Assembly (NCBI GenBank): GCA_016720805.1
Contig: JADKJZ010000014.1
Coordinates: 1,053,162 to 1,117,161 of the forward strand
Origin: Gemmatimonadota bacterium
GTDB lineage: Bacteria; Gemmatimonadota; Gemmatimonadetes; Gemmatimonadales; GWC2-71-9
Direction: 5' to 3'
Length of the DNA stretch: 64,000 nt
Position 1 is the first letter of the stretch, and every line of letters starts with the position of its first letter. Positions 13,358 to 58,230 of the stretch are shown here, piece by piece. Position numbers and translations under genes: made by a program. Below the pieces are notes generated by a model. It was not told the origin of the DNA. It was given only the letters and a program-made list of their open reading frames with translations, and ran no database searches.

Positions 13358-13393
13358 AATCGATGATCGATGATCGATGATCGATCATCGATT
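13358..13393. repeat. Heptamer-palindrome element (GATGATC)n(GATCATC), hairpin-forming
   Basis: aatcgatgatcga / tgatcgatga / tcgatcatcgatt: 13358-13370 is the exact reverse complement of 13381-13393. Sits in the 61-nt gap between the cheA stop and the cheC start. Confidence 0.85.
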
Positions 13394-47231: not shown

Positions 47232-47669
47232 ATGCTCGTGGCGGGGACGGCCGCGGTCTTGGTGGGCTATGGGGCGGCGTGGCTGCCAGGCGGCGCGCCA
47301 CCGTGGGCCAGTTGGGCGATGGTCATCGGCATGGCGCTGCTGTTGCCGGGCACGCTCTTGCTGGGCGCACTGCGACGTGGTCGGAACAGCGTTCGCCTGG
47401 TGCTGATCGCGCTGGCACTCGGCCTCCTGCTGGTCGTGGCGTTCGGCGCGGCGTTGCTGCTGCCGGCCGCTGGTGCGGAAGAGGCCCTGTTCCTCGGCCT
47501 GCCGCGGCGCGCGGCGATCATCGTCTACGGCGTCGGGCTCGTGCCGCTCCTCTTCCTGCCGTGGGCGTTCGCGCGTGACTTCCGTGACTTCGGACTCGAT
47601 GAGGCCCGCCTGGACGCGCTCCGGCGCGAGTGTGCGCGGGTCGGCCCGCCTCGGGAGCCGCGACCATGA
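47232..47669 (+). CDS. Small polytopic membrane protein coupled to the symporter
   Basis: 3-4 hydrophobic helices. Its stop overlaps the symporter ATG (ATGA at 47666). Start uncertain: ATG 47232 or in-frame TTG 47181. Confidence 0.4.
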   Translation: MLVAGTAAVLVGYGAAWLPGGAPPWASWAMVIGMALLLPGTLLLGALRRGRNSVRLVLIALALGLLLVVAFGAALLLPAAGAEEALFLGLPRRAAIIVYGVGLVPLLFLPWAFARDFRDFGLDEARLDALRRECARVGPPREPRP

Positions 47670-49123
47670 TCGTCGCCGTGGCGATCGGCTACCTCGCGCT
47701 CTGTCTGCTGATCGGGGCGTGGGCCGCGCGCCGCACGCACTCGGCGCAGGACTTCTTCGTCGCTGGCGCGGGGATCGGGCTGTGGCCGTTGGCGATCGCA
47801 TCGATGGCGGCCACACTGTCGGGCTTCGCGTTCATTGGCGGTCCCGGCTTGCTCTACAGCGTGGGTACCGGTGCGCTCTTCATTGTGCTGCCTGCCGGCA
47901 TCACCGGGGCACTGAGTGCCTGGCTGCTGGGGAGTCGGATGCGCCTGCTGGGCGAAGTGCGGGGCCTGATGACCGTCCCCGACGCGATCGGCGTGCGGTA
48001 CCGGTCGCGGGCCGCGCAGGGGCTCTCGGCGCTCGCCATCCTGGTGGCGACGATCGGATACCTTGCGACCAACCTGCTCGCGCTCGGCCTGATCATCGAC
48101 GCGATCTTCCACACGGGGCTCCCGCTGGGGATCGTGATCGGCGCGGTGGTGGTGGTGGCCTACTCGGCCGCCGGAGGCATCCTCGCCGGCATCTACACCG
48201 ATCTGGTGCAGGGGGCCATCATGGCGCTCGCCTCGATGCTGGTCTTCGGCGCGGCGATGACCAGCGGTGGGGGGCTCGGCGGCATCTCGCGGACCATCCT
48301 GGCGCATGAGCCGATGCTGCTCGGGCCGTGGGGGAAATTCACCCCGCTGGCGGCGCTCTCCTTCTTCTTCGTATTCGCCCTGGGCACGCTGGGCCAGCCG
48401 CACGTGATCCACAAGTACTACATGCTGCGCGATCCTCGTCGGTTGCGGTGGTACCCGTTGCTGATGACCGGGGCGATGGTGGTGACGCTGCTGCTCTACT
48501 TTGGCGTGGGTGTCGCGATCAAGGCCGCGGTCCTGCGGGGTGACGTCCCGCCGCTGGCGAGGGGGGATGACGCCACCCCGACCTTCCTGCTGCGCTACAC
48601 GGCCCCCTGGCTCGCGGGGCTCGTCTTCAGCGGCGTCGCCGCTGCGATCATGAGTACCGTCAATTCCTTCTTCAGCGTCGGCGCGGCCGCGATCACGCAC
48701 GATCTTCCCGTGGCATTCGGACGTCGCGCCACAAACGAGTTGCGAGGTGGCCGGATGGCGACGCTCGCGTTGGCGGTCCTCGCGACATTGCTTGCCCTCG
48801 GCAGCGGCCAGGCCGTGGCCCTCCTCGGCGTCTTCGGCTGGGGGCTCTTTGCCTCGACCCTCGTACCGGCACTCGCCATCGGACTGAACTGGCCAGGAGC
48901 CACCCGGAAGGGGGCCCTCGCCTCGATCGGCGTCGGTCTGGTGACCACCCTCCTCTTCGAGACCCTCGCCTGGGCCAAGGCCTACACCTTCCCGGCCGGC
49001 GTCACGGTCTCGGGACTCTCCCTGATCCTGGCGATGGCCACCTTCTTCGCGGTGTCGTGGCTGACGCGCGACGAGGCGGAGGGAGATCTCGATGCGGACG
49101 TGCGGGTGATCATCGAAAGCTGA
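47666..49123 (+). CDS. Sodium:solute symporter (SSS) family transporter
   Basis: About 13 hydrophobic segments. The N-terminal 'FFVAGAGIGLWPLAIASMAATLSGFAFIGGPG' is typical of the SSS family. Confidence 0.85.
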   Translation: MIVAVAIGYLALCLLIGAWAARRTHSAQDFFVAGAGIGLWPLAIASMAATLSGFAFIGGPGLLYSVGTGALFIVLPAGITGALSAWLLGSRMRLLGEVRGLMTVPDAIGVRYRSRAAQGLSALAILVATIGYLATNLLALGLIIDAIFHTGLPLGIVIGAVVVVAYSAAGGILAGIYTDLVQGAIMALASMLVFGAAMTSGGGLGGISRTILAHEPMLLGPWGKFTPLAALSFFFVFALGTLGQPHVIHKYYMLRDPRRLRWYPLLMTGAMVVTLLLYFGVGVAIKAAVLRGDVPPLARGDDATPTFLLRYTAPWLAGLVFSGVAAAIMSTVNSFFSVGAAAITHDLPVAFGRRATNELRGGRMATLALAVLATLLALGSGQAVALLGVFGWGLFASTLVPALAIGLNWPGATRKGALASIGVGLVTTLLFETLAWAKAYTFPAGVTVSGLSLILAMATFFAVSWLTRDEAEGDLDADVRVIIES

Positions 49124-49133
49124 AGGGTCGTTA

Positions 49134-49170
49134 CGATGATCGATCATCGATCATCGATCATCGATCGTCG
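49134..49170. repeat. Heptamer-palindrome element (GATGATC)(GATCATC)n
   Basis: cgatgatcga-tca-tcgatcatcg (49134-49156) forms a 10-bp stem with a 3-nt loop, followed by further GATCATC units. Lies between the symporter stop and the recG start. Confidence 0.85.
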
Positions 49171-49191
49171 AATCTCTCTTATCTTGGTCTC

Positions 49192-51255
49192 ATGGCCCAA
49201 CTCCGCCTCGACACTCCCATCCAGTTCCTGAAAGGCATCGGCGAGAAGCGCGCCGACGCCTTCGCGCGGCTGGGCGTGGTGTCGGTGCACGACCTGCTGC
49301 ACCACCTGCCGCATCGCTACATCGACGCCTCGACCACCACGCCGCTCGCGCAGGCGCGTGTCGGCGATGATGTGGCGTGCATCGGTACGGTCGTCAGCAA
49401 GGGGGTGCTGCCGACGCGGAAGGGGCTGCGGGTCTTCCATGCCGTGCTCAAGGATGCGAGCGGGTTGCTGGAGTGTGCCTGGCCCGGGCAGGCGTTCCTC
49501 GACCGGACGCTGGCCGTGGGGCAGTTGATCCTCGTGGCAGGCCCGATCCGCTTCTATCACGGCCGGCAGATGGCACCGCGCGAGCTGGTGATTCTCGGCG
49601 ACGCCGACGATCCGGCTGCCGCGGGGCGGATCCTCCCGGTCTATCCCGCCACCGAGGGGCTCTCGCACAAGCAGATCCGCGCGCTGATGGAGACGCACCT
49701 CGACACCCTCTCGCCGTTGGTGCCGGACGTCCTCGACCCGACGCTGCGCGACCGCTTTGCGTTGCCGTCATTGGCGGATGCACTGCGGGCTGTGCACCGC
49801 CCGACGACGATGGCGGAGGCGGAGTCGGGACGGCGCCGGTTGGCACTGGACGAACTGCTCGACCTGCAGCTCATGTTGGCGCGCGCTCGTCACGTGGCGC
49901 GCCATGGGCAGCGCGGCCAGACCTTCACGCTGCACAAGACCTTCACGTCACAGCTGCGCGAGGCGCTGCCGTGGCCGCTCACCGGCGACCAGAAGAAGGC
50001 GATCCGCGAGATCTTCGAGGACATGACGCACGAGGAGCGGATGCACCGCCTCGTGATGGGCGATGTCGGCACCGGGAAGACGGTGGTGGCGCTCTTCGCA
50101 ATGCTGCTGGCGCTGGAGAACGACTGCCAGGCCGCCCTGATGGCGCCGACGGAACTGCTCGCCGAGCAACACCACCGGACGCTCACGACGCTGCTCGCCC
50201 CGCTTGGGCTCGTGCCGGAGCTGCTGCTCGGGCGACTGACCGCAGCCGAGAAGAAGGCGGCGCACGCCCGGCTGCGCACCGGTGCCACGAAGCTGGTTGT
50301 CGGGACGCATGCACTCGTGCAGGAGTCGGTGGCCTTCCAGCGCCTCGGCCTGGTGGTGATCGACGAACAGCACCGCTTCGGGGTGGAGCAACGCGCTGCG
50401 CTGATGGGGAAGGGGGAGGCACCCGACGTGCTGCTGTTGACCGCCACGCCTATCCCGCGCTCGTTGGCACTGACGCGCTACGGCGACCTCGATGCCTCGC
50501 TGCTCAAGGAGCGGCCGCCTGGGCGCGGCACCATCCGCACCGCCGTCCGCACGCCGTCGCAACGTCGGCGGGTCTTCGAGTTCCTGCGCGAGACGGCACT
50601 CAAGGGCGGGCAGGTCTACATCGTCCTGCCGGTGATCGAGGAGTCGGAGAAGGCCGACCTGCGCGCGGCGCAGACGATGGCGACCTCGCTCACGGCGCAG
50701 TGGCCGGATGTGACGGTCGGACTGGTGCATGGCCGGCTCAAGGCACCAGAGCGTGATCAGGTCATGCGCGACTTCCGCGACGGCAAGATCGGCGTGCTGG
50801 TCGCCACCACGGTGATCGAGGTCGGGATCGACGTCGCGAATGCGACGGTCATGGTCATCGAGCATCCGGAGCGCTTCGGGCTGGCGCAGTTGCACCAGCT
50901 CCGCGGCCGCGTCGGACGGGGGAGCGGCGACTCGCACAGCATCCTGCTCACCGTCGGCGAGGACGTCCCGGAGCGGCTCCGGGCGTTCTCGAAGACCGAC
51001 GACGGCTTCGCGATCGCCGAGCTCGACTTGCAGGAGCGCCGGCAAGGCGACCTGCTCGGCGCCCGGCAGTCCGGCGGCGTCGACTTCAAGGTGGCCCGCT
51101 TCCCGGACGACACCGACCTGCTCACCGAGGCGCGCGCCCTCGCGCGCACGATTCTCGACGCCGACCCGACCCTGGACCGCCGCGAGCATCAGGCGCTGAA
51201 GGATCGGGTGGTGACGCGGTATCCGAGGGGGGAGACGTTGTTTAGGGTGGGATGA
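49192..51255 (+). CDS. recG: ATP-dependent DNA helicase RecG
   Basis: Wedge-domain N-terminus, 'MGDVGTGKTVVA', 'DEQHRFGV', 'TATPIPRS', 'QLHQLRGRVGRG'. Confidence 0.9.
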   Translation: MAQLRLDTPIQFLKGIGEKRADAFARLGVVSVHDLLHHLPHRYIDASTTTPLAQARVGDDVACIGTVVSKGVLPTRKGLRVFHAVLKDASGLLECAWPGQAFLDRTLAVGQLILVAGPIRFYHGRQMAPRELVILGDADDPAAAGRILPVYPATEGLSHKQIRALMETHLDTLSPLVPDVLDPTLRDRFALPSLADALRAVHRPTTMAEAESGRRRLALDELLDLQLMLARARHVARHGQRGQTFTLHKTFTSQLREALPWPLTGDQKKAIREIFEDMTHEERMHRLVMGDVGTGKTVVALFAMLLALENDCQAALMAPTELLAEQHHRTLTTLLAPLGLVPELLLGRLTAAEKKAAHARLRTGATKLVVGTHALVQESVAFQRLGLVVIDEQHRFGVEQRAALMGKGEAPDVLLLTATPIPRSLALTRYGDLDASLLKERPPGRGTIRTAVRTPSQRRRVFEFLRETALKGGQVYIVLPVIEESEKADLRAAQTMATSLTAQWPDVTVGLVHGRLKAPERDQVMRDFRDGKIGVLVATTVIEVGIDVANATVMVIEHPERFGLAQLHQLRGRVGRGSGDSHSILLTVGEDVPERLRAFSKTDDGFAIAELDLQERRQGDLLGARQSGGVDFKVARFPDDTDLLTEARALARTILDADPTLDRREHQALKDRVVTRYPRGETLFRVG

Positions 51256-51290
51256 TGGATGATGGATGATGGATGATGGATGATCGATGG
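51251..51290. repeat. Direct heptamer array (GATGATG)x4-GATGATC-GATGG
   Basis: Read directly. Begins inside the last recG codons and stop (tga 51253-51255). Confidence 0.9.
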
Positions 51291-51303
51291 CCTGTCTCGG
51301 AGT

Positions 51304-51350
51304 TGTCATCCTGAGCGTAATGGCCCGAAGGGCCGCGCAGTCGAAGGACC
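51304..51350. repeat. 47-bp GC-rich hairpin element, copy A (TGTCATCCTGAGCG...GCGCAGTCGAAGGACC)
   Basis: tgtcatcctgagcg-taatggcccgaagggcc-gcgcagtcgaaggacc, with an internal ggccc-gaa-gggcc hairpin. Its flanks match the reverse complement of 52497-52543. Confidence 0.8.
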
Positions 51351-51404
51351 TACGACCTACGACCTACGACGTACGACCCTAACAACCAACGACCAACGAC
51401 TAAC
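51349..51404. repeat. Heptamer arrays upstream of paralog 1: (CCTACGA)x3+CGTACGA, then four NACNAAC-like units
   Basis: cctacga cctacga cctacga cgtacga ccctaac aaccaac gaccaac gactaac, ending 8 nt before the GTG at 51413. Confidence 0.9.
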
Positions 51405-51412
51405 GGCTCTCC

Positions 51413-52441
51413 GTGTACTCCACCTGCCTCTTCTGCACCAAGGACCTCGGCACCAACGAGGTGATCGAGACGCTGCCCATCGGGCGGCGGCTCGCCTTTG
51501 ATGCGTCGCAGGGTCGGCTCTGGGTGGTGTGCCGGCACTGCGCCAAGTGGAACCTGGTGCCGTTCGAGTCGCGGCTCGAGAGCATCGACGCGTGCGAGCG
51601 ACTCTTCCGCGACACGCCGACGCGGTACTCGACCGACAACATCGGCTTGGCGCGGGTGAAGGAGGGCTTGGAGCTGGTGCGGATCGGGCCGGCGCAGCGG
51701 CCGGAGTTTGCGGGGTGGCGGTATGGGGACCAGTTCAGGCGACGGCGTCGGCGGAACCTCCTGATCGGTGTTGGCGGCGCGGCGTTAGTGGGTGGGGCAG
51801 TGTTGGCACCTGGCCTGTCTGGCGGCATGGGAGCGCTTGCAGCGGTGTTCGCCTATCAATGGGGCGACGTCGCATTCGCAGCACTCAGAGCTTCCCGAGG
51901 CCGGATGGCGGTCGTCGATCCTCGGAATGGCGTCCGCCAGACACTCTGGCGAACGGCGATGACGAGCGCGCGCGTCGCGTGGCGGGATAGCACGCCCGTG
52001 TTGCGCGTCATGCCCCTCCTCAGCCGGAAGCTCGAGTGGCACGGCGATGACGTCCCTCGCATCGGTCAACGGGTTATGGCCGGGGTCAACTTGCTCGACG
52101 GGGGCCGGAAGGCACTGGCGGCGGCGACCACAATACTGGGAGACCACCACGGCGATCTTTCGAGCTGGATGATGCTTCGGTCGAAGGAGCCGGGTTTCGT
52201 CGATCCGCGCACCGGGAGCTCCCCGGTCTTCGCCGCGAATCGTGCCGACTATTGGCAGGGATATGGCGAACCCATGCTCATCATCGGCAAGCTTCCCGAG
52301 GTCGAGCGGCTGGCCGTAGAGATGTACTTCGCCGAATCCGCCGAACGCAACTACCTCGAGGGTGAGCTCACACTTCTCGAGCGCGAATGGCGTCAGGCGG
52401 AGCAACTCGCGAAGATTGCCGATGGGCTGGCGCTGGAGTAG
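51413..52441 (+). CDS. Paralog 1: zinc-ribbon / membrane-hairpin protein of unknown function
   Basis: 342 aa. N-terminal CxxC-x31-CxxC (C5,C8,C40,C43) plus C61, 'RRRRRN', a Gly/Ala-rich hydrophobic stretch, a unique middle, and the conserved tail 'ERNYLEGELTLLEREWRQAEQLAKIADGLAL'. GTG start. Confidence 0.7.
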   Translation: MYSTCLFCTKDLGTNEVIETLPIGRRLAFDASQGRLWVVCRHCAKWNLVPFESRLESIDACERLFRDTPTRYSTDNIGLARVKEGLELVRIGPAQRPEFAGWRYGDQFRRRRRRNLLIGVGGAALVGGAVLAPGLSGGMGALAAVFAYQWGDVAFAALRASRGRMAVVDPRNGVRQTLWRTAMTSARVAWRDSTPVLRVMPLLSRKLEWHGDDVPRIGQRVMAGVNLLDGGRKALAAATTILGDHHGDLSSWMMLRSKEPGFVDPRTGSSPVFAANRADYWQGYGEPMLIIGKLPEVERLAVEMYFAESAERNYLEGELTLLEREWRQAEQLAKIADGLALE

Positions 52442-52469
52442 GCGAGAAGCGAGAAGCGAGAAGCGATAA
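52442..52469. repeat. Direct heptamer array (GCGAGAA)x3-GCGATAA
   Basis: Read directly. Begins immediately after the paralog-1 stop codon. Confidence 0.9.
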
Positions 52470-52476
52470 GGGCCAA

Positions 52477-52543
52477 GTGCATTCGCGAGCACGCAGGTCC
52501 TTCGACTGCGCAGCCCTGCGGGCTGCTTCGCTCAGGATGACAT
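52477..52543. repeat. 'GTGCATTCGCGAGCACGCAG' box + 47-bp GC-rich element, copy B (inverted relative to copy A)
   Basis: The reverse complement of 52497-52543 is atgtcatcctgagcg-aagcagcccgcagggct-gcgcagtcgaaggac. The 14- and 15-nt flanks are identical to copy A, with a different but still hairpin-forming core (cagccc-tgc-gggctg). Confidence 0.8.
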
Positions 52544-52547
52544 AACT

Positions 52548-52640
52548 CCTACGACCTACGACTTACGACCTACGACCTACGACCTACGACTTACGACCTA
52601 CGACGTACGACCCTAACGACCAACGACTAACGACTAACGA
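52548..52640. repeat. Expanded heptamer arrays upstream of paralog 2: 9 NNTACGA units, then four NACNAAC-like units
   Basis: cctacga x2, cttacga, cctacga x3, cttacga, cctacga, cgtacga; then ccctaac gaccaac gactaac gactaac. Same arrangement as upstream of paralog 1, but 9 units instead of 4. Confidence 0.9.
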
Positions 52641-52646
52641 CTCTCC

Positions 52647-53705
52647 GTGTACTCCACCTGCCTCTTCTGCACCAAGGACCTCGGCACCAACGAGGTGATC
52701 GAGACGTTGCCCATCGGGCGGCGGCTCGCCTTTGATGCGTCGCAGGGTCGGCTCTGGGTGGTGTGCCGGCACTGCGCCAAGTGGAACCTGGTGCCGTTCG
52801 AGTCGCGGCTCGAGAGCATCGACGCGTGCGAGCGACTCTTCCGCGACACGCCGACGCGGTACTCGACCGACAACATCGGCTTGGCGCGGGTGAAGGAGGG
52901 CTTGGAGCTGGTGCGGATCGGGCCGGCGCAGCGGCCGGAGTTTGCGGGGTGGCGGTATGGGGAGCAGTACAACCGCCGTCGGCGGAATGCCTATCTGATC
53001 GGGGGCGCGGGCGTGGTGGTTGGAATGGGGGCGATCGCCGCGCTGAGCGCGTTCGGCTTTGCGGCGGCCAGTGGTGGCTATCTCAGCTATCAACTCGTGA
53101 AGGCAGGATGGGATGCCGGGCTGAATCGCCAGGCCAGGTTTCTGCTCCCCGATCCCGATCCCGCCGCGCGCGAGACGGTGCGACTCGATCGCAGTCACCT
53201 GAAGCACGCCACGATTTCCTGGGAAGACGGCACGCCATCGCTGGACCTTCCCCACCCGAAGCACCTCAAGAAGGGGGACTTCGTCCTCTCCTACCGCGGT
53301 GCCGAGCTGCAGTCGGTGGGGCGTCGGGCTGTCGCTGGCCTCAACCTGCTTGTTGGCGGACGATCCCAGTTGCAGGAAGGCAGCCGGATCCTCGCGGAGA
53401 ATCACGGCGATCTCTCGGACTGGCTCCGCCGCCGCACCGTTGCACTCGCGGACGTCCCCAAGGCCGGAACCCCGAAACACTGGGTGAACTACACTGCCCC
53501 TTACCTTGTGCTCGACAAGCTCAACGCCGGTGACCGCATGGCCGTCGAACTCTGGATGAACGAGGACATCGAGCGGCAGTGGCTCGAGGGAGAGCTTACT
53601 CTTCTGGAGCGCGAATGGCGTCAGGCGGAGGAGCTGGCCAAGATCAGCGATGCGCTGGCGCTGCCGGAGACGGCGGATGAGGAACTCGCGAAACGGAAGG
53701 GGTAA
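52647..53705 (+). CDS. Paralog 2: zinc-ribbon / membrane-hairpin protein of unknown function
   Basis: 352 aa. The first 317 nt differ from paralog 1 at a single synonymous position. The middle is unrelated to paralog 1. Tail 'ERQWLEGELTLLEREWRQAEELAKISDALAL'. Confidence 0.7.
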   Translation: MYSTCLFCTKDLGTNEVIETLPIGRRLAFDASQGRLWVVCRHCAKWNLVPFESRLESIDACERLFRDTPTRYSTDNIGLARVKEGLELVRIGPAQRPEFAGWRYGEQYNRRRRNAYLIGGAGVVVGMGAIAALSAFGFAAASGGYLSYQLVKAGWDAGLNRQARFLLPDPDPAARETVRLDRSHLKHATISWEDGTPSLDLPHPKHLKKGDFVLSYRGAELQSVGRRAVAGLNLLVGGRSQLQEGSRILAENHGDLSDWLRRRTVALADVPKAGTPKHWVNYTAPYLVLDKLNAGDRMAVELWMNEDIERQWLEGELTLLEREWRQAEELAKISDALALPETADEELAKRKG

Positions 53706-53751
53706 GTGCATTCGCGAGCACGCAGCTCCCTCGCTGCGCTCGGGATGACAT
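53706..53751. repeat. 'GTGCATTCGCGAGCACGCAG' box + short GC-rich element, copy C
   Basis: The same 20-nt box as at 52477-52496, followed by ctccctcgctgcgctcgggatgacat (reverse complement atgtcatcccgagcgcagcgagggag). Can fold as cgagcacgcagc-tccctc-gctgcgctcg. Confidence 0.75.
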
Positions 53752-53782
53752 CGATCATCGACCATCGATGATCGATCATCGA
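53751..53782. repeat. Heptamer-palindrome element
   Basis: tcgatcatcga-cca-tcgatgatcga (53751-53775) forms a perfect 11-bp stem with a 3-nt loop, followed by tcatcga. Lies between paralogs 2 and 3. Confidence 0.85.
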
Positions 53783-53792
53783 GCCCTGGGGA

Positions 53793-54827
53793 GTGTTTCT
53801 CATTTACTCAACCTGTCTTTTCTGCACCAAGGACCTCGGCACCAACGACGTCCTCGAGACCCTGCCCATCGGCCGGCGCATCGCGTTTGATGCGGCGGAG
53901 GGGCGGTTGTGGGTCGTGTGCCGGCATTGTGCCAAGTGGAACCTGGTGCCGTTCGACTCGCGCCTCGAAACGATTGACGATTGCGAGCGGCTCTTCCGCA
54001 GCACCACGATGCGCTACTCGACCGACAACATCGGGCTGGCGCGCGTGAAGGAAGGGCTCGAGCTGGTGCGGATCGGTGAGGCGCAGCGGCCCGAGTTCGC
54101 GGGGTGGCGCTACGGCGACTCGTTCGGGCGCCGCCGCCGCCGCAACCTCCTGATTGCCGGCGGGGTCGCCGCAGCGGGGATCGCGGTGGTCTCCGGCGGA
54201 CTCGCGATGGGCGTCTCCTTCGGCATGCTCGGCCAGCTCCCGAACTACTACAACCTCTTTGTGGTGAATCGTCGCGTCACGGTGCGGGTGCCACGCGCCG
54301 ACGGCCCACCGATCGAGCTGTCCGACGCGCTCGCCTCGAAGGCACGTCTCGTGCGCCGACCGAACAACGAGTGGCTAATCCGCACCAAGGTGATGGAAGA
54401 GTCCAGCATGAGTCGCAAGCTTCGGAAGGCCGGGTCGCAGGAGATCGAGTTCACCGGTGCGGAGGCCGAACAGCTACTTGCCGGCGTGCTCGTGCGCCTG
54501 AATCGGTGGGGCGGGACCCAACGCACCGTACGCGAGGCGGTCGACCTGGTCGAACGACAGGGCGACAGCGCCGGCGTCATCGCGGGCCCGTTCTCACCGG
54601 TGATGGATGGCAGCGGCTCACAGCTGCTCGCCAAGACCCCGTCCGAATGGCGCCTCGCCGCCGAGATCGCGCTCAATGAGAGCTCGGAACGCCTCGCCCT
54701 CGCCGGCGAACTGCGGGTGCTGGAATGGCAGTGGAAGGAAGCCGATCGGCTCGCGAAGATCAGCGACTCGCTGGCGGTGCCGGAGTCGATCGACGAGGAG
54801 TTGGCCCGGCGGAAGGATGATCGATGA
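53793..54827 (+). CDS. Paralog 3: zinc-ribbon / membrane-hairpin protein of unknown function
   Basis: 344 aa. N-terminal domain is roughly 85% identical in protein to paralogs 1 and 2 (by eye) but clearly diverged at the DNA level. Unique middle. Tail 'ERLALAGELRVLEWQWKEADRLAKISDSLAV'. GTG start at 53793 (uncertain). Confidence 0.65.
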   Translation: MFLIYSTCLFCTKDLGTNDVLETLPIGRRIAFDAAEGRLWVVCRHCAKWNLVPFDSRLETIDDCERLFRSTTMRYSTDNIGLARVKEGLELVRIGEAQRPEFAGWRYGDSFGRRRRRNLLIAGGVAAAGIAVVSGGLAMGVSFGMLGQLPNYYNLFVVNRRVTVRVPRADGPPIELSDALASKARLVRRPNNEWLIRTKVMEESSMSRKLRKAGSQEIEFTGAEAEQLLAGVLVRLNRWGGTQRTVREAVDLVERQGDSAGVIAGPFSPVMDGSGSQLLAKTPSEWRLAAEIALNESSERLALAGELRVLEWQWKEADRLAKISDSLAVPESIDEELARRKDDR

Positions 54828-54845
54828 TCGATGATCGATCATCGA
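54816..54845. repeat. Heptamer-palindrome element (GATGATC)x3(GATCATC)
   Basis: tcgatgatcga-tga-tcgatcatcga (54821-54845) forms an 11-bp stem with a 3-nt loop. Overlaps the last codons and stop of paralog 3. Confidence 0.85.
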
Positions 54846-54913
54846 CTTCTGTCACCCAACTGTCATCTTGTCGCCATCTGTCGCCCCAATATTCGAAAAT
54901 CTCCACCCCATCC

Positions 54914-55951
54914 ATGTACTCCACCTGTCTCCTCTGTGCCGACTCGTTGGGGACGAACGCCGTCCTCGAGACGCTCCCCGTGGGGCGGCGCCTGGCGTTT
55001 GACCCGGCCAAGGGACGGCTCTGGGTCGTCTGCCCCGGCTGTGCCCGATGGAACCTGGTTCCCTTCGACAATCGGCTCGAGGCGATCGACGAGTGCGAGC
55101 GCCACTTCCGCGACACCCGCGTTCGCTTCTCCACCGGGACGATCGGCATGGCCCGGATGCCGGACGGCACCGAACTGGTGCGGATCGGCGAGGCGCTTCG
55201 TCCCGAGTTCGCGGCGTGGCGGTACGGCCGCGAGCTGTTGCGTCGGCGGCGGCGTGCCCTCCCATTCGGGACGCAGCGCGAGCACACCGGCGTGGCGGCG
55301 TGGATCTCCGATGTGGCCACGATGGTCGGCACGCTGATCGCCATCCCCTTCCTCGAGGGAGCGATCGGCCCGCGCCACGCCGTGAGCGCCGTGCGCCTCG
55401 TGCGCGATCCGTGGACCGGCAACCTGCTCCGCGTCCGCGCGCTGGCGATGGTGCGCTCCGTCCTGGCGCGCGAGGACGACCAGTGGCGGCTCGAAGTGCC
55501 CTATCGAAGCGAGCTCGACGTGGTGCTCGGCGACGATCCCCTCGCCATCACGTCCATCCGCGATCACCCCGCCGTCGGCTTCTTTCGGGGCGACAAGCTC
55601 TACGAGGGGCTCGCGAGGGTGCTGCCGACGATCGAGAGTCGCCTGCCGTCGGCGGGTGAGGTGCAGGAGGCGACCCGACTGCTCGAGCGGACCTCCGACG
55701 ATCCGGCGATGCTCATCGGCTATGTCACCGGACGGCCGTTGCGCCTCGGGACCCGGGGACAGTTCCCGTTGGCCGACGTGGCACCGGAGATCCGGCTCGC
55801 GCTCGAGATGGCCTCGCATGAGGAGACCGAGCGCCGTGCGCTCGAAGGGGAGCTGAAGCTGCTCGAGCACGAGTGGCGCGAGGCGGAGCGACTCGCGGCC
55901 ATCCTCGACGACCTCGCACTGCCCGCCGGAGGGCCCGATGCCGTCACGTGA
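54914..55951 (+). CDS. Paralog 4 (most divergent): zinc-ribbon protein of the same family
   Basis: ATG at 54914 within track ORF 54824..55951. 'CLLC ... CPGC ... DECERHF' keeps all five Cys, plus 'RRRRRA' and the tail 'ERRALEGELKLLEHEWREAERLAAILDDLAL'. Its own upstream region has no CTACGA array. Confidence 0.65.
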   Translation: MYSTCLLCADSLGTNAVLETLPVGRRLAFDPAKGRLWVVCPGCARWNLVPFDNRLEAIDECERHFRDTRVRFSTGTIGMARMPDGTELVRIGEALRPEFAAWRYGRELLRRRRRALPFGTQREHTGVAAWISDVATMVGTLIAIPFLEGAIGPRHAVSAVRLVRDPWTGNLLRVRALAMVRSVLAREDDQWRLEVPYRSELDVVLGDDPLAITSIRDHPAVGFFRGDKLYEGLARVLPTIESRLPSAGEVQEATRLLERTSDDPAMLIGYVTGRPLRLGTRGQFPLADVAPEIRLALEMASHEETERRALEGELKLLEHEWREAERLAAILDDLALPAGGPDAVT

Positions 55952-56729
55952 CGTCTATCTCCTGACGGTGTCCGCGGCTCCGCTCCTCGCGGCGCTGGTG
56001 GTGCTCTGCTGGATCGCCTCGCTCATCCGCCGCGACAGCTCACTCGTCGACCGGATCTGGGGACTCGGCTTCGTGCTGCTGGTGCACCATCACACGGCCT
56101 TCGCCGGGGAGGTCGGTGGCACGGTCGATCGGCTCTTCGCGGCACTGGTGGTGATCTGGGGGCTCAGGCTGACGTGGCACATCACCCATCGCAACTGGGG
56201 GCACGGCGAGGACCCCCGGTACGCCGCGATGCGCGCCAGGAACGGGGGCCGCTGGTGGTGGCAGAGCCTCTTCACCGTCTTCCTGCTTCAGGGGGCGCTG
56301 ATGCTCCTGATCGGCCTTCCGCTCGCAGCGACGGCGACGCCTGGCGCAGCGTGGGGACGGGCGCTCGGCAGCCTGCTCTGGGCGGTGGGGTTTGCCTTCG
56401 AGGCCGGCGGTGACTGGCAGCTCGCCCGCTTCAAGGCCAACCCGGCCAACCGCGGCCAGGTCCTCGATACCGGCTTCTGGCGCTACACCCGCCACCCGAA
56501 CTACTTCGGCGACGCCCTCCAGTGGTGGGGCTTATGGTGCTTTGCGGCGGCGACCGGCCTCTGGTGGACGATCGTCTCCCCGATCCTCATGACGCTGCTG
56601 CTCCTGAAGGTCTCCGGGGTGACCCTGCTGGAGTCGGCACTCGTCGACTCCAAGCCCGGCTATCGGGATTACGTCCGCCGAACACCGGCGTTCTTCCCGT
56701 GGTGGCCGCGGTCTGACGGCCGCGGATGA
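55938..56729 (+). CDS. DUF1295 / steroid-5-alpha-reductase-like membrane protein
   Basis: 'SLVDRIWGLGF', 'GEDPRY', 'GFWRYTRHPNYFGD' and multiple TM helices. The start overlaps the end of paralog 4 by 14 nt. Confidence 0.75.
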   Translation: MPSRDVYLLTVSAAPLLAALVVLCWIASLIRRDSSLVDRIWGLGFVLLVHHHTAFAGEVGGTVDRLFAALVVIWGLRLTWHITHRNWGHGEDPRYAAMRARNGGRWWWQSLFTVFLLQGALMLLIGLPLAATATPGAAWGRALGSLLWAVGFAFEAGGDWQLARFKANPANRGQVLDTGFWRYTRHPNYFGDALQWWGLWCFAAATGLWWTIVSPILMTLLLLKVSGVTLLESALVDSKPGYRDYVRRTPAFFPWWPRSDGRG

Positions 56730-56784: not shown

Positions 56785-56821
56785 CGTTTCACCCGTTCAC
56801 CGTTCACCGTTCACCGTTCAC
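56785..56821. repeat. Direct heptamer array (CGTTCAC)x4 preceded by a degenerate unit
   Basis: cgtttcac-c-cgttcac-cgttcac-cgttcac-cgttcac, ending 11 nt before the asnS ATG. Confidence 0.9.
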
Positions 56822-56832
56822 CGGTCCTCCGC

Positions 56833-58147: not shown

Positions 58148-58230
58148 GGATGATGGATGATAGATCATGGATGATGGATTGTTCGTTCCGCGACGGCCAT
58201 CCATCATCCATCATCCATCATCCATCATCC
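58148..58230. repeat. Long inverted heptamer repeat: (GGATGAT)n arm / 19-nt loop / (ATCATCC)n arm
   Basis: The left arm (58148-58179) matches the reverse complement of the right arm (58199-58230) at 30 of 32 positions. Sits between the convergent asnS and mazG genes; the right arm contains the mazG stop codon. Confidence 0.85.

Follow-up and report, generated by a model that had tools for sequence, protein, structure and literature searches.

Here we describe the recent homogenisation of two neighbouring genes in a Gemmatimonadota bacterium (assembly GCA_016720805.1). The analysis centres on a stretch of 64,000 nucleotides (nt) of contig JADKJZ010000014.1 (positions 1,053,162 to 1,117,161 of the forward strand), called the window below, and coordinates are those of the window. 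In it a tandem array of four paralogs, p1 to p4, follows recG (49057-51255), with all four genes on the + strand. The first two, p1 (51413-52441, 342 amino acids (aa)) and p2 (52647-53705, 352 aa), share a nearly identical block of 383 nt that takes in leader sequence and the N-terminal domain (N-domain), and the remainder of the two genes is saturated with substitutions. It is very probable that the block arose by intrachromosomal, non-reciprocal homologous recombination (gene conversion) between these adjacent tandem paralogs.

The shared block and its edges

Ungapped comparison at an offset of 1234 nt bears out the initial annotation in that 51413-51729 and 52647-52963, 317 nt each, differ at a single site: position 51473 is C in p1 and its counterpart in p2 is T, a synonymous change between the Leu codons CTG and TTG. 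The sharp end of the block at 51730/52964 also stands, with mismatches dense from there on, but its 5' start had been placed too far downstream. Identity is prolonged for 66 nt upstream of the start codon, to 51347/52581, with extra mismatches at 51357, 51384, 51394 and 51406. The full shared block, 51347-51729 in p1 and 52581-52963 in p2 (both + strand), contains 5 mismatches in 383 nt (98.7% identity) and consists of the 66-nt leader, a GTG start and codons 1-105, which encode a zinc-ribbon N-domain as far as the motif WRYG. Its 5' edge falls within a heptamer array of the p1 leader, (GACCTAC)n at 51347-51400, and the exact position of this edge cannot be fixed. The array in the p2 leader, (CCTACGA)n at 52548-52641, is longer, with about 11 units (Tandem Repeats Finder, + strand in both cases).

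Past the block, 319 of 684 nt differ between p1 and p2 (about 47%, codon-guided alignment), against 1 of 317 within its coding part (Fisher test of coding block versus aligned remainder, p = 3e-65). Relatives of the window genome (G000) are labelled G004, G005, G006, G010, G012 and G015. At the divergence of the unconverted pair of G015 (41/315), the probability of observing at most one difference would be 3e-18. A chance origin of the near-identical block is excluded. The sequences after the breakpoint had been called unrelated; this is true of the DNA but not of the proteins, since the middle regions of p1 and p2 are homologous (32% identity, E = 3e-23).

The position of the 3' edge is explained by the paralogs themselves. 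Whether a paralog pair has been converted or not, its ungapped nucleotide identity stays at 70-100% as far as about +330 and then falls to noise in all pairs examined, and the tract ends at WRYG because the DNA similarity of the paralogs drops there from about 85-90% to noise. Since tract end and homology end coincide in all pairs, as homology-dependent recombination would predict, no programmed cassette system is needed, and the phrase cassette exchange in the initial annotation is unnecessary for this block: a conserved module was copied, and the tract stops where nucleotide homology stops. The same annotation had set the breakpoint at a domain boundary, with which a structural model agrees. 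In the AlphaFold2 model WRYG lies right after the compact N-domain, at the start of a helix leading into a hydrophobic hairpin, and the breakpoint is therefore a module boundary.

The third paralog gives a measure of what the N-domain tolerates at the DNA level. As annotated, it encodes nearly the same N-domain with many nucleotide differences: 92 of 105 residues are identical to p1, 51 of 315 nt differ, and the differing codons comprise 31 synonymous and 13 amino-acid-changing ones. Compared with either p1 or p2, 51-52 of 315 nt differ (dS, the synonymous divergence, about 0.6), and there is no recent conversion. The p4 N-domain differs from those of the other paralogs at 82-87 of 315 nt.

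Divergence in relatives and in a second strain

Synonymous and non-synonymous divergence (dS and dN; omega, their ratio dN/dS) were estimated by the Nei-Gojobori method. Between p1 and p2, dS is 0.013 in the N-domain, 1.47 (saturated) in the hairpin and middle region, and 0.80 in the C-terminal 50 codons. The Arg-rich/hydrophobic hairpin and variable middle domain of p1 (51730-52300, + strand) thus lie beyond the conversion tract, as do those of p2 (52964-53560, + strand), which are under purifying selection relative to the G015 ortholog (omega 0.08). The conserved C-terminal helix module of p1 (52342-52444, + strand; repeat family D3) has 79% nucleotide identity to the p2 copy, and its counterparts at 53570-53672, 54686-54788 and 55828-55930 (+ strand) are similar at the protein level, with no recent conversion. 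Between species, dS of orthologous N-domains is 0.28-0.53, and therefore the N-domain is under no special synonymous constraint. The middle regions of intact orthologs of types 1-4 evolve under purifying selection (omega 0.06-0.27); the exception is the divergent pair G000_1/G010_1 (forms 1a and 1b), where an omega of 0.41 is uninformative because dS is saturated.

Genomes of the same genus hold a syntenic array after recG. The N-domains of p1 and p2 differ at 1 of 315 nt in G000, 22 in G005, 41 in G015 and 32 in G010 (allowing for a 1-nt gap), and the pairs in the relatives are unconverted or were converted longer ago. In a maximum-likelihood tree built from the part of the protein that follows WRYG, the genes group by orthology type with support of 96-100. 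Here p1 (type 1) joins its G015 counterpart (G000_1+G015_1, 100/96), and p2 (type 2), which is 92% identical to its G015 ortholog, does likewise (G000_2+G015_2, 98/99). The tree of N-domain DNA pairs genes within genomes instead: G000_1+G000_2 (100/99), G005_1+G005_2 (99/97) and G012_1+G012_2 (100/99). A pair in G004 has the same contrast between N-domain and remainder. The fourth paralog, p4 (54914-55951, + strand, 345 aa), is the most divergent type and forms its own clade in both trees. Approximately unbiased (AU) tests on the N-domain rejected monophyly of type 1 (p = 1.5e-4) and of type 2 (p = 5e-4), and on the remainder of the protein rejected a G000_1+G000_2 clade (p = 3e-85). Within genomes, the four closest N-domain pairs are in every case neighbouring genes (G000 1-2, G004 2-3, G005 1-2 and G006 1-2), with 1, 14, 22 and 26 differences. 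These pairs, together with the trees, show that conversion of the N-module is recurrent and that the event in the window is the most recent.

A search with the exact p1 protein led to a comparison strain, GCA_016709975.1 (contig JADJLS010000005.1, locus L031), whose locus matches the window at 98.5% identity along 9 kb. This independently assembled sister strain carries the same block, with 7 mismatches between its p1 and p2 copies in 383 nt. The block is not an assembly artefact, which answers the refuting condition (assembly error) named in the initial annotation. Its claim of recent recombination rather than purifying selection also holds, given the contrast in dS, the unconverted pairs of the relatives, the discordant trees with their AU tests and the independent assembly. 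Three leader differences between the copies, at -55, -28 and -6, are common to both strains, and the first homogenisation is therefore older than the split of the two strains.

Between the strains p1 has 1 difference in 1029 nt, with 0 in the 712 nt of its variable region, and p2 has 24 differences in 742 nt outside the block. Over 47413-56600, compared with L031, divergence is patchy: long stretches have 0 differences per 250 nt, and there are clusters of 12-17 single-nucleotide polymorphisms (SNPs) per 250 nt, for example at 49413, 53413-53900, 54413 and 56163. Such patchiness is typical of frequent homologous recombination in a population. We also noted that paralog 4 of the sister strain is called as two pieces of 313 aa and 47 aa, and that paralog 2 of G010 (locus L022, G010:C5) has a frame-breaking 1-nt deletion near gene position +162. 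These frame breaks could mark pseudogenes or be long-read indel errors.

Direction of transfer and alternative explanations

Sites at which G010 and G015 agree within an orthology type and differ between types were taken as diagnostic. In the coding block of p1, 7 of 8 diagnostic sites carry the type 2 state, as does 51345, just upstream of the block edge; from 51735 on, p1 takes type 1 states. The p1 leader, with its heptamer array and GTG start, resembles the paralog-2 leader of G010, as does the leader and GTG start of p2, whereas paralog 1 of G010 starts with ATG and lacks such an array in its leader. Because the diagnostic sites of p1 are mostly type 2, and its leader and GTG start type 2-like, p2 was likely the main donor and p1 the acceptor.

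The strain comparison adds a second layer. At +180, +189, +213 and +222, p2 of the sister strain holds C-G-C-G, the same as paralog 2 of G010, and both window copies and the sister-strain p1 hold G-A-G-C. This pattern could have arisen by a short patch copied later from p1 to p2 in the window lineage, or by import in the other strain. A single clean event from p2 to p1 is too simple, given the mosaic pattern and this strain-specific patch of four SNPs. Several points weigh against the direction and simplicity of the transfer outlined above. With G010 alone as reference, +180 to +262 look type 1-like and the block is partly mosaic, and the diagnostic sites from which the direction is read are few. 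Position +61 is C, the ancestral state, in window p1 and T in the other three copies of the two strains, which needs an extra mutation or exchange. In addition, the genomes are metagenome-assembled, and single sites may represent a consensus of mixed strains.

The block itself, its authenticity and recent origin, the conflict between the trees and the repeated occurrence of such events are shown by these comparisons. From them we infer the direction and number of events and also a RecA-type mechanism limited by homology, which the coincidence of tract end and loss of nucleotide similarity supports indirectly. The starting point is an ancient four-gene array behind recG, in which every product combines a zinc-ribbon N-domain and an Arg-rich/hydrophobic hairpin with a diverged middle and a C-terminal helix that is conserved. 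The leader and first ~317 coding nt of p2 would then have overwritten their equivalent in p1 in this species lineage. The tract may have begun in the shared heptamer-repeat leader and would have stopped at WRYG, the heteroduplex being unable to extend past the loss of homology. At least one further short exchange probably took place later, leaving the one coding difference of the window strain. The same process has evened out the N-domains of neighbouring paralogs in several of the related genomes, the N-module evolving in concert and the remainder diverging.

A separate exchange appears to have affected the middle of p1. From 51730 to about 52300, p1 has only 35-65% DNA identity to its G010 ortholog, against about 90-95% for the N-domain, the C-helix, p2, p3, p4 and recG; the two flanks of the p1 middle are about 92% identical, and similarity falls sharply at both of its sides (window versus G010 locus L022 and G005 locus L024). 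On the tree the type 1 remainder splits into G000+G015 and G010+G005 (100/96 and 100/99), and forcing G000_1 together with G010_1 is rejected (p = 1e-37). Two old, deeply diverged forms of the p1 middle thus occupy one position, with a distribution at odds with the flanking genes, which suggests allelic replacement of a cassette through the conserved flanks. The two forms are the sole support for the wording cassette exchange, and represent an event different from the 383-nt block. A broader proposal is that the N- and C-terminal modules serve as recombination handles by which middle 'specificity' domains are swapped between paralogs and strains, the 383-nt block being one footprint of this. 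The discordance of the p1 middle forms with species relationships, between such similar flanks, hints at it, and if true the array would be a natural domain-shuffling locus, but we regard the proposal as doubtful.

Among explanations that compete with gene conversion, unequal crossing-over would have fused the p2 leader and N-domain to the remainder of p1, with subsequent loss of the original p1. The same hybrid structure is expected, and duplication and loss do occur, since array size varies from 2 to 6 genes among relatives. However, two events would be needed, first a duplication and afterwards a precise deletion, which together would have to restore the four-gene synteny and spacing of G015 and G010, and the four-SNP patch common to p1 and p2 here, and not in the sister strain, better suits short conversion tracts; we consider crossing-over improbable. 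Equally improbable is an exchange between genomes instead of within the array, with p1 imported from a different strain or species as an allele already bearing a p2-like N-domain. It would sit well with the patchy strain divergence and its SNP clusters, with a p1 that is near-identical between strains (1/1029 nt) while p2 differs (24/742 nt outside the block), and with a p1 middle region at odds with species relationships. The block, however, is closest to its own p2 (1 difference) and has at least 22 differences from any N-domain in ten relatives, and the donor was therefore the resident neighbour or a sequence indistinguishable from p2.

Gene conversion is our preferred reading, and the other alternatives fare worse. 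A collapsed or copied repeat in assembly or consensus is a natural concern in a metagenome-assembled genome of 16 contigs, the more so as a relative of the same data type has a probable 1-nt indel error in paralog 2. Yet the block recurs in an independent assembly of a different strain, the two copies are told apart by 5 sites and by their numbers of heptamer units and were hence resolved separately, and a direct repeat of two copies can be arranged in just one way along a linear path, which makes an artefact very improbable. The chances are just as slim for programmed cassette switching (antigenic variation, a shufflon or a diversity-generating retroelement) that moved middle cassettes behind a constant 5' end. 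The constant-variable-constant architecture of a tandem array would be expected of such a system, as would a p1 middle cassette that differs between otherwise close species. The array, however, consists of four full-length genes with middle regions under purifying selection (save G000_1/G010_1), the order of the four types is kept across genera, and it is the constant part that was exchanged here, not the variable one; no recombinase or reverse transcriptase gene was found in the array neighbourhood of either the window or the GCA_016709975.1 locus. Finally, selection on the nucleotide sequence itself (RNA structure, internal promoter or antisense gene) would explain why the non-coding leader is included in the identity, but is effectively refuted by orthologous blocks that differ at 22-40 of 315 sites (dS 0.3-0.5), and p3 differs at 31 synonymous codons. 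An Rfam scan gave no match near the gathering score (its single match had E = 0.23 and 20.6 bits, where the threshold is 60 bits), and a terminator scan of the locus gave no terminator-like site.

The array, its repeats and the protein family

The window genome comprises 3.5 Mb in 16 contigs, and the window lies on a contig of 1.13 Mb; named homologs assign it to the Gemmatimonadota. All four paralogs are complete open reading frames, each with its own start, and the neighbours of the array in the window are an SSF symporter, RecG, DUF1295 and asnS only. A defence island or contingency locus was considered and rejected, as the array occupies a conserved housekeeping neighbourhood across genera. 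The third gene, p3 (53793-54827, + strand), has 344 aa when counted from a GTG; the codon at its aligned start Met is ATT (53802), with GGGGAG 8 nt upstream. Non-canonical codons (ATT, ATC or CTG) stand at this position also in G010_3, G005_2, G006_2, G012_1 (ATC) and G006_1 (CTG), and in the family they are either real non-canonical starts or miscalled start sites. Elsewhere in the genome (contig C7, 102171-105342) three further genes in tandem form a second cluster that is distantly related; their N-termini carry a similar CxxC...CxxC, after which come several hydrophobic helices, and relatives own similar second clusters.

Two kinds of repeat surround the paralogs. A GC-rich hairpin element resembling repetitive extragenic palindromic (REP) sequences lies at 51304-51354 (no strand assigned), with an inverted partner at 52492-52542 (inverted repeat I1, 86% complementary). 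These copies bracket p1 in inverted orientation, and a further copy lies at about 53737. With up to 2 mismatches allowed, the core of the element, GTCATCCTGAGCG, has 361 matches in the genome, where chance alone would give about 78. The element is a dispersed genome repeat and no part of the converted block, and in relatives it takes other intergenic positions in the array. Heptamer arrays are a general feature of the genome: Tandem Repeats Finder reported 477 arrays of period 7, against 10-46 for periods 6, 8 and 9, with ATCATCG (97), ATCATCC (92) and AACGACT (74) as the dominant motifs. Those in the window are intergenic and lie around the paralog array and its neighbours, for example at 13359-13392, 49134-49171, 51250-51289, 52442-52470, 53749-53782, 54816-54845, 56788-56823 and 58148-58230. 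Relatives have heptamer arrays at the same gene boundaries, with other motifs and copy numbers.

The encoded proteins have an N-domain of about 105 residues with CxxC...CxxC, an Arg-rich stretch and hydrophobic helical hairpin (approximately residues 113-150), a variable alpha/beta middle region and a long conserved C-terminal helix. Searches of Pfam, NCBIfam, PADLOC and PHROGs returned no match, and a PDB profile search gave only noise. The AlphaFold2 model is confident (predicted local distance difference test (pLDDT) 82, predicted template modelling score (pTM) 0.74), and a Foldseek search with it found nothing below an E value of 0.1 (best E 0.5 in PDB and 0.14 among viral structures). The family is large, with more than 6,600 matches in a database clustered at 90% identity and 2,482 clusters when the threshold is 50%. 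Of 151 genomes sampled from the phylum, 86 carry it, with 1-15 copies each. In distant members, too, three to four paralogs form an array between recG and asnS, in some cases with genes spaced 4 nt apart. The proteins are probably cytoplasmic-facing membrane proteins and not surface antigens. Conserved arrays and purifying selection would fit co-functioning subunits better than a contingency locus. It is our guess, and a weakly supported one, that the paralogs may be subunits of a membrane-anchored hetero-oligomer with shared N- and C-terminal assembly modules, an idea prompted solely by the conserved multi-paralog, operon-like arrays.

Zinc-ribbon membrane-anchored regulators include the zinc-binding anti-sigma factors, with which these proteins have in common a zinc-ribbon-like motif of the Cys4 type at the N-terminus (CxxC...CxxC), ahead of a hydrophobic segment and a variable domain. 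The searches above, however, gave no sequence or fold match, no sigma factor gene is adjacent, and the proteins have a conserved C-terminal helix instead. Mosaic families with conserved ends and variable centres are well known from Neisseria opa and pilE/pilS, Anaplasma msp2, Borrelia vls and polymorphic toxin/immunity loci. The array resembles these families in its constant-variable-constant layout, in recombination within conserved flanks and in having one middle that differs between close species. It differs from them in that silent partial cassettes are absent, the variable regions are kept between orthologs by purifying selection, the neighbourhood is a housekeeping one (recG, asnS) and there is no sign of high-frequency switching.

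Concerted evolution by gene conversion is established in bacteria for tufA/tufB in Salmonella and for rRNA operons, and cases among bacterial paralogs were reportedly reviewed by Santoyo and Romero in 2005. As in those systems, the segment described here was homogenised within one genome, probably non-reciprocally, and is bounded by the limits of homology, its tree is discordant with that of its flanks, and the process recurs in related lineages. In contrast to cases of the tufA/tufB type, only one module and its leader are homogenised while the remainder is saturated with substitutions, and the genes involved are tandem neighbours, not dispersed copies. A literature search on gene conversion or heptamer repeats in Gemmatimonadota found nothing relevant.

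The process itself is an ordinary one in tandem gene families and belongs to textbook biology; it is the protein family that is uncharacterised. The block provides a clean and well-controlled case of module-limited concerted evolution: its recent event can be dated, a second assembly confirms it, and sister genomes bear older events of the same kind. It follows for the family that N-domain sequences are unusable for inferring orthology, and that short-read assembly and read mapping over such arrays call for care. The finding also draws attention to a large, wholly uncharacterised protein family in a conserved recG-array-asnS neighbourhood.

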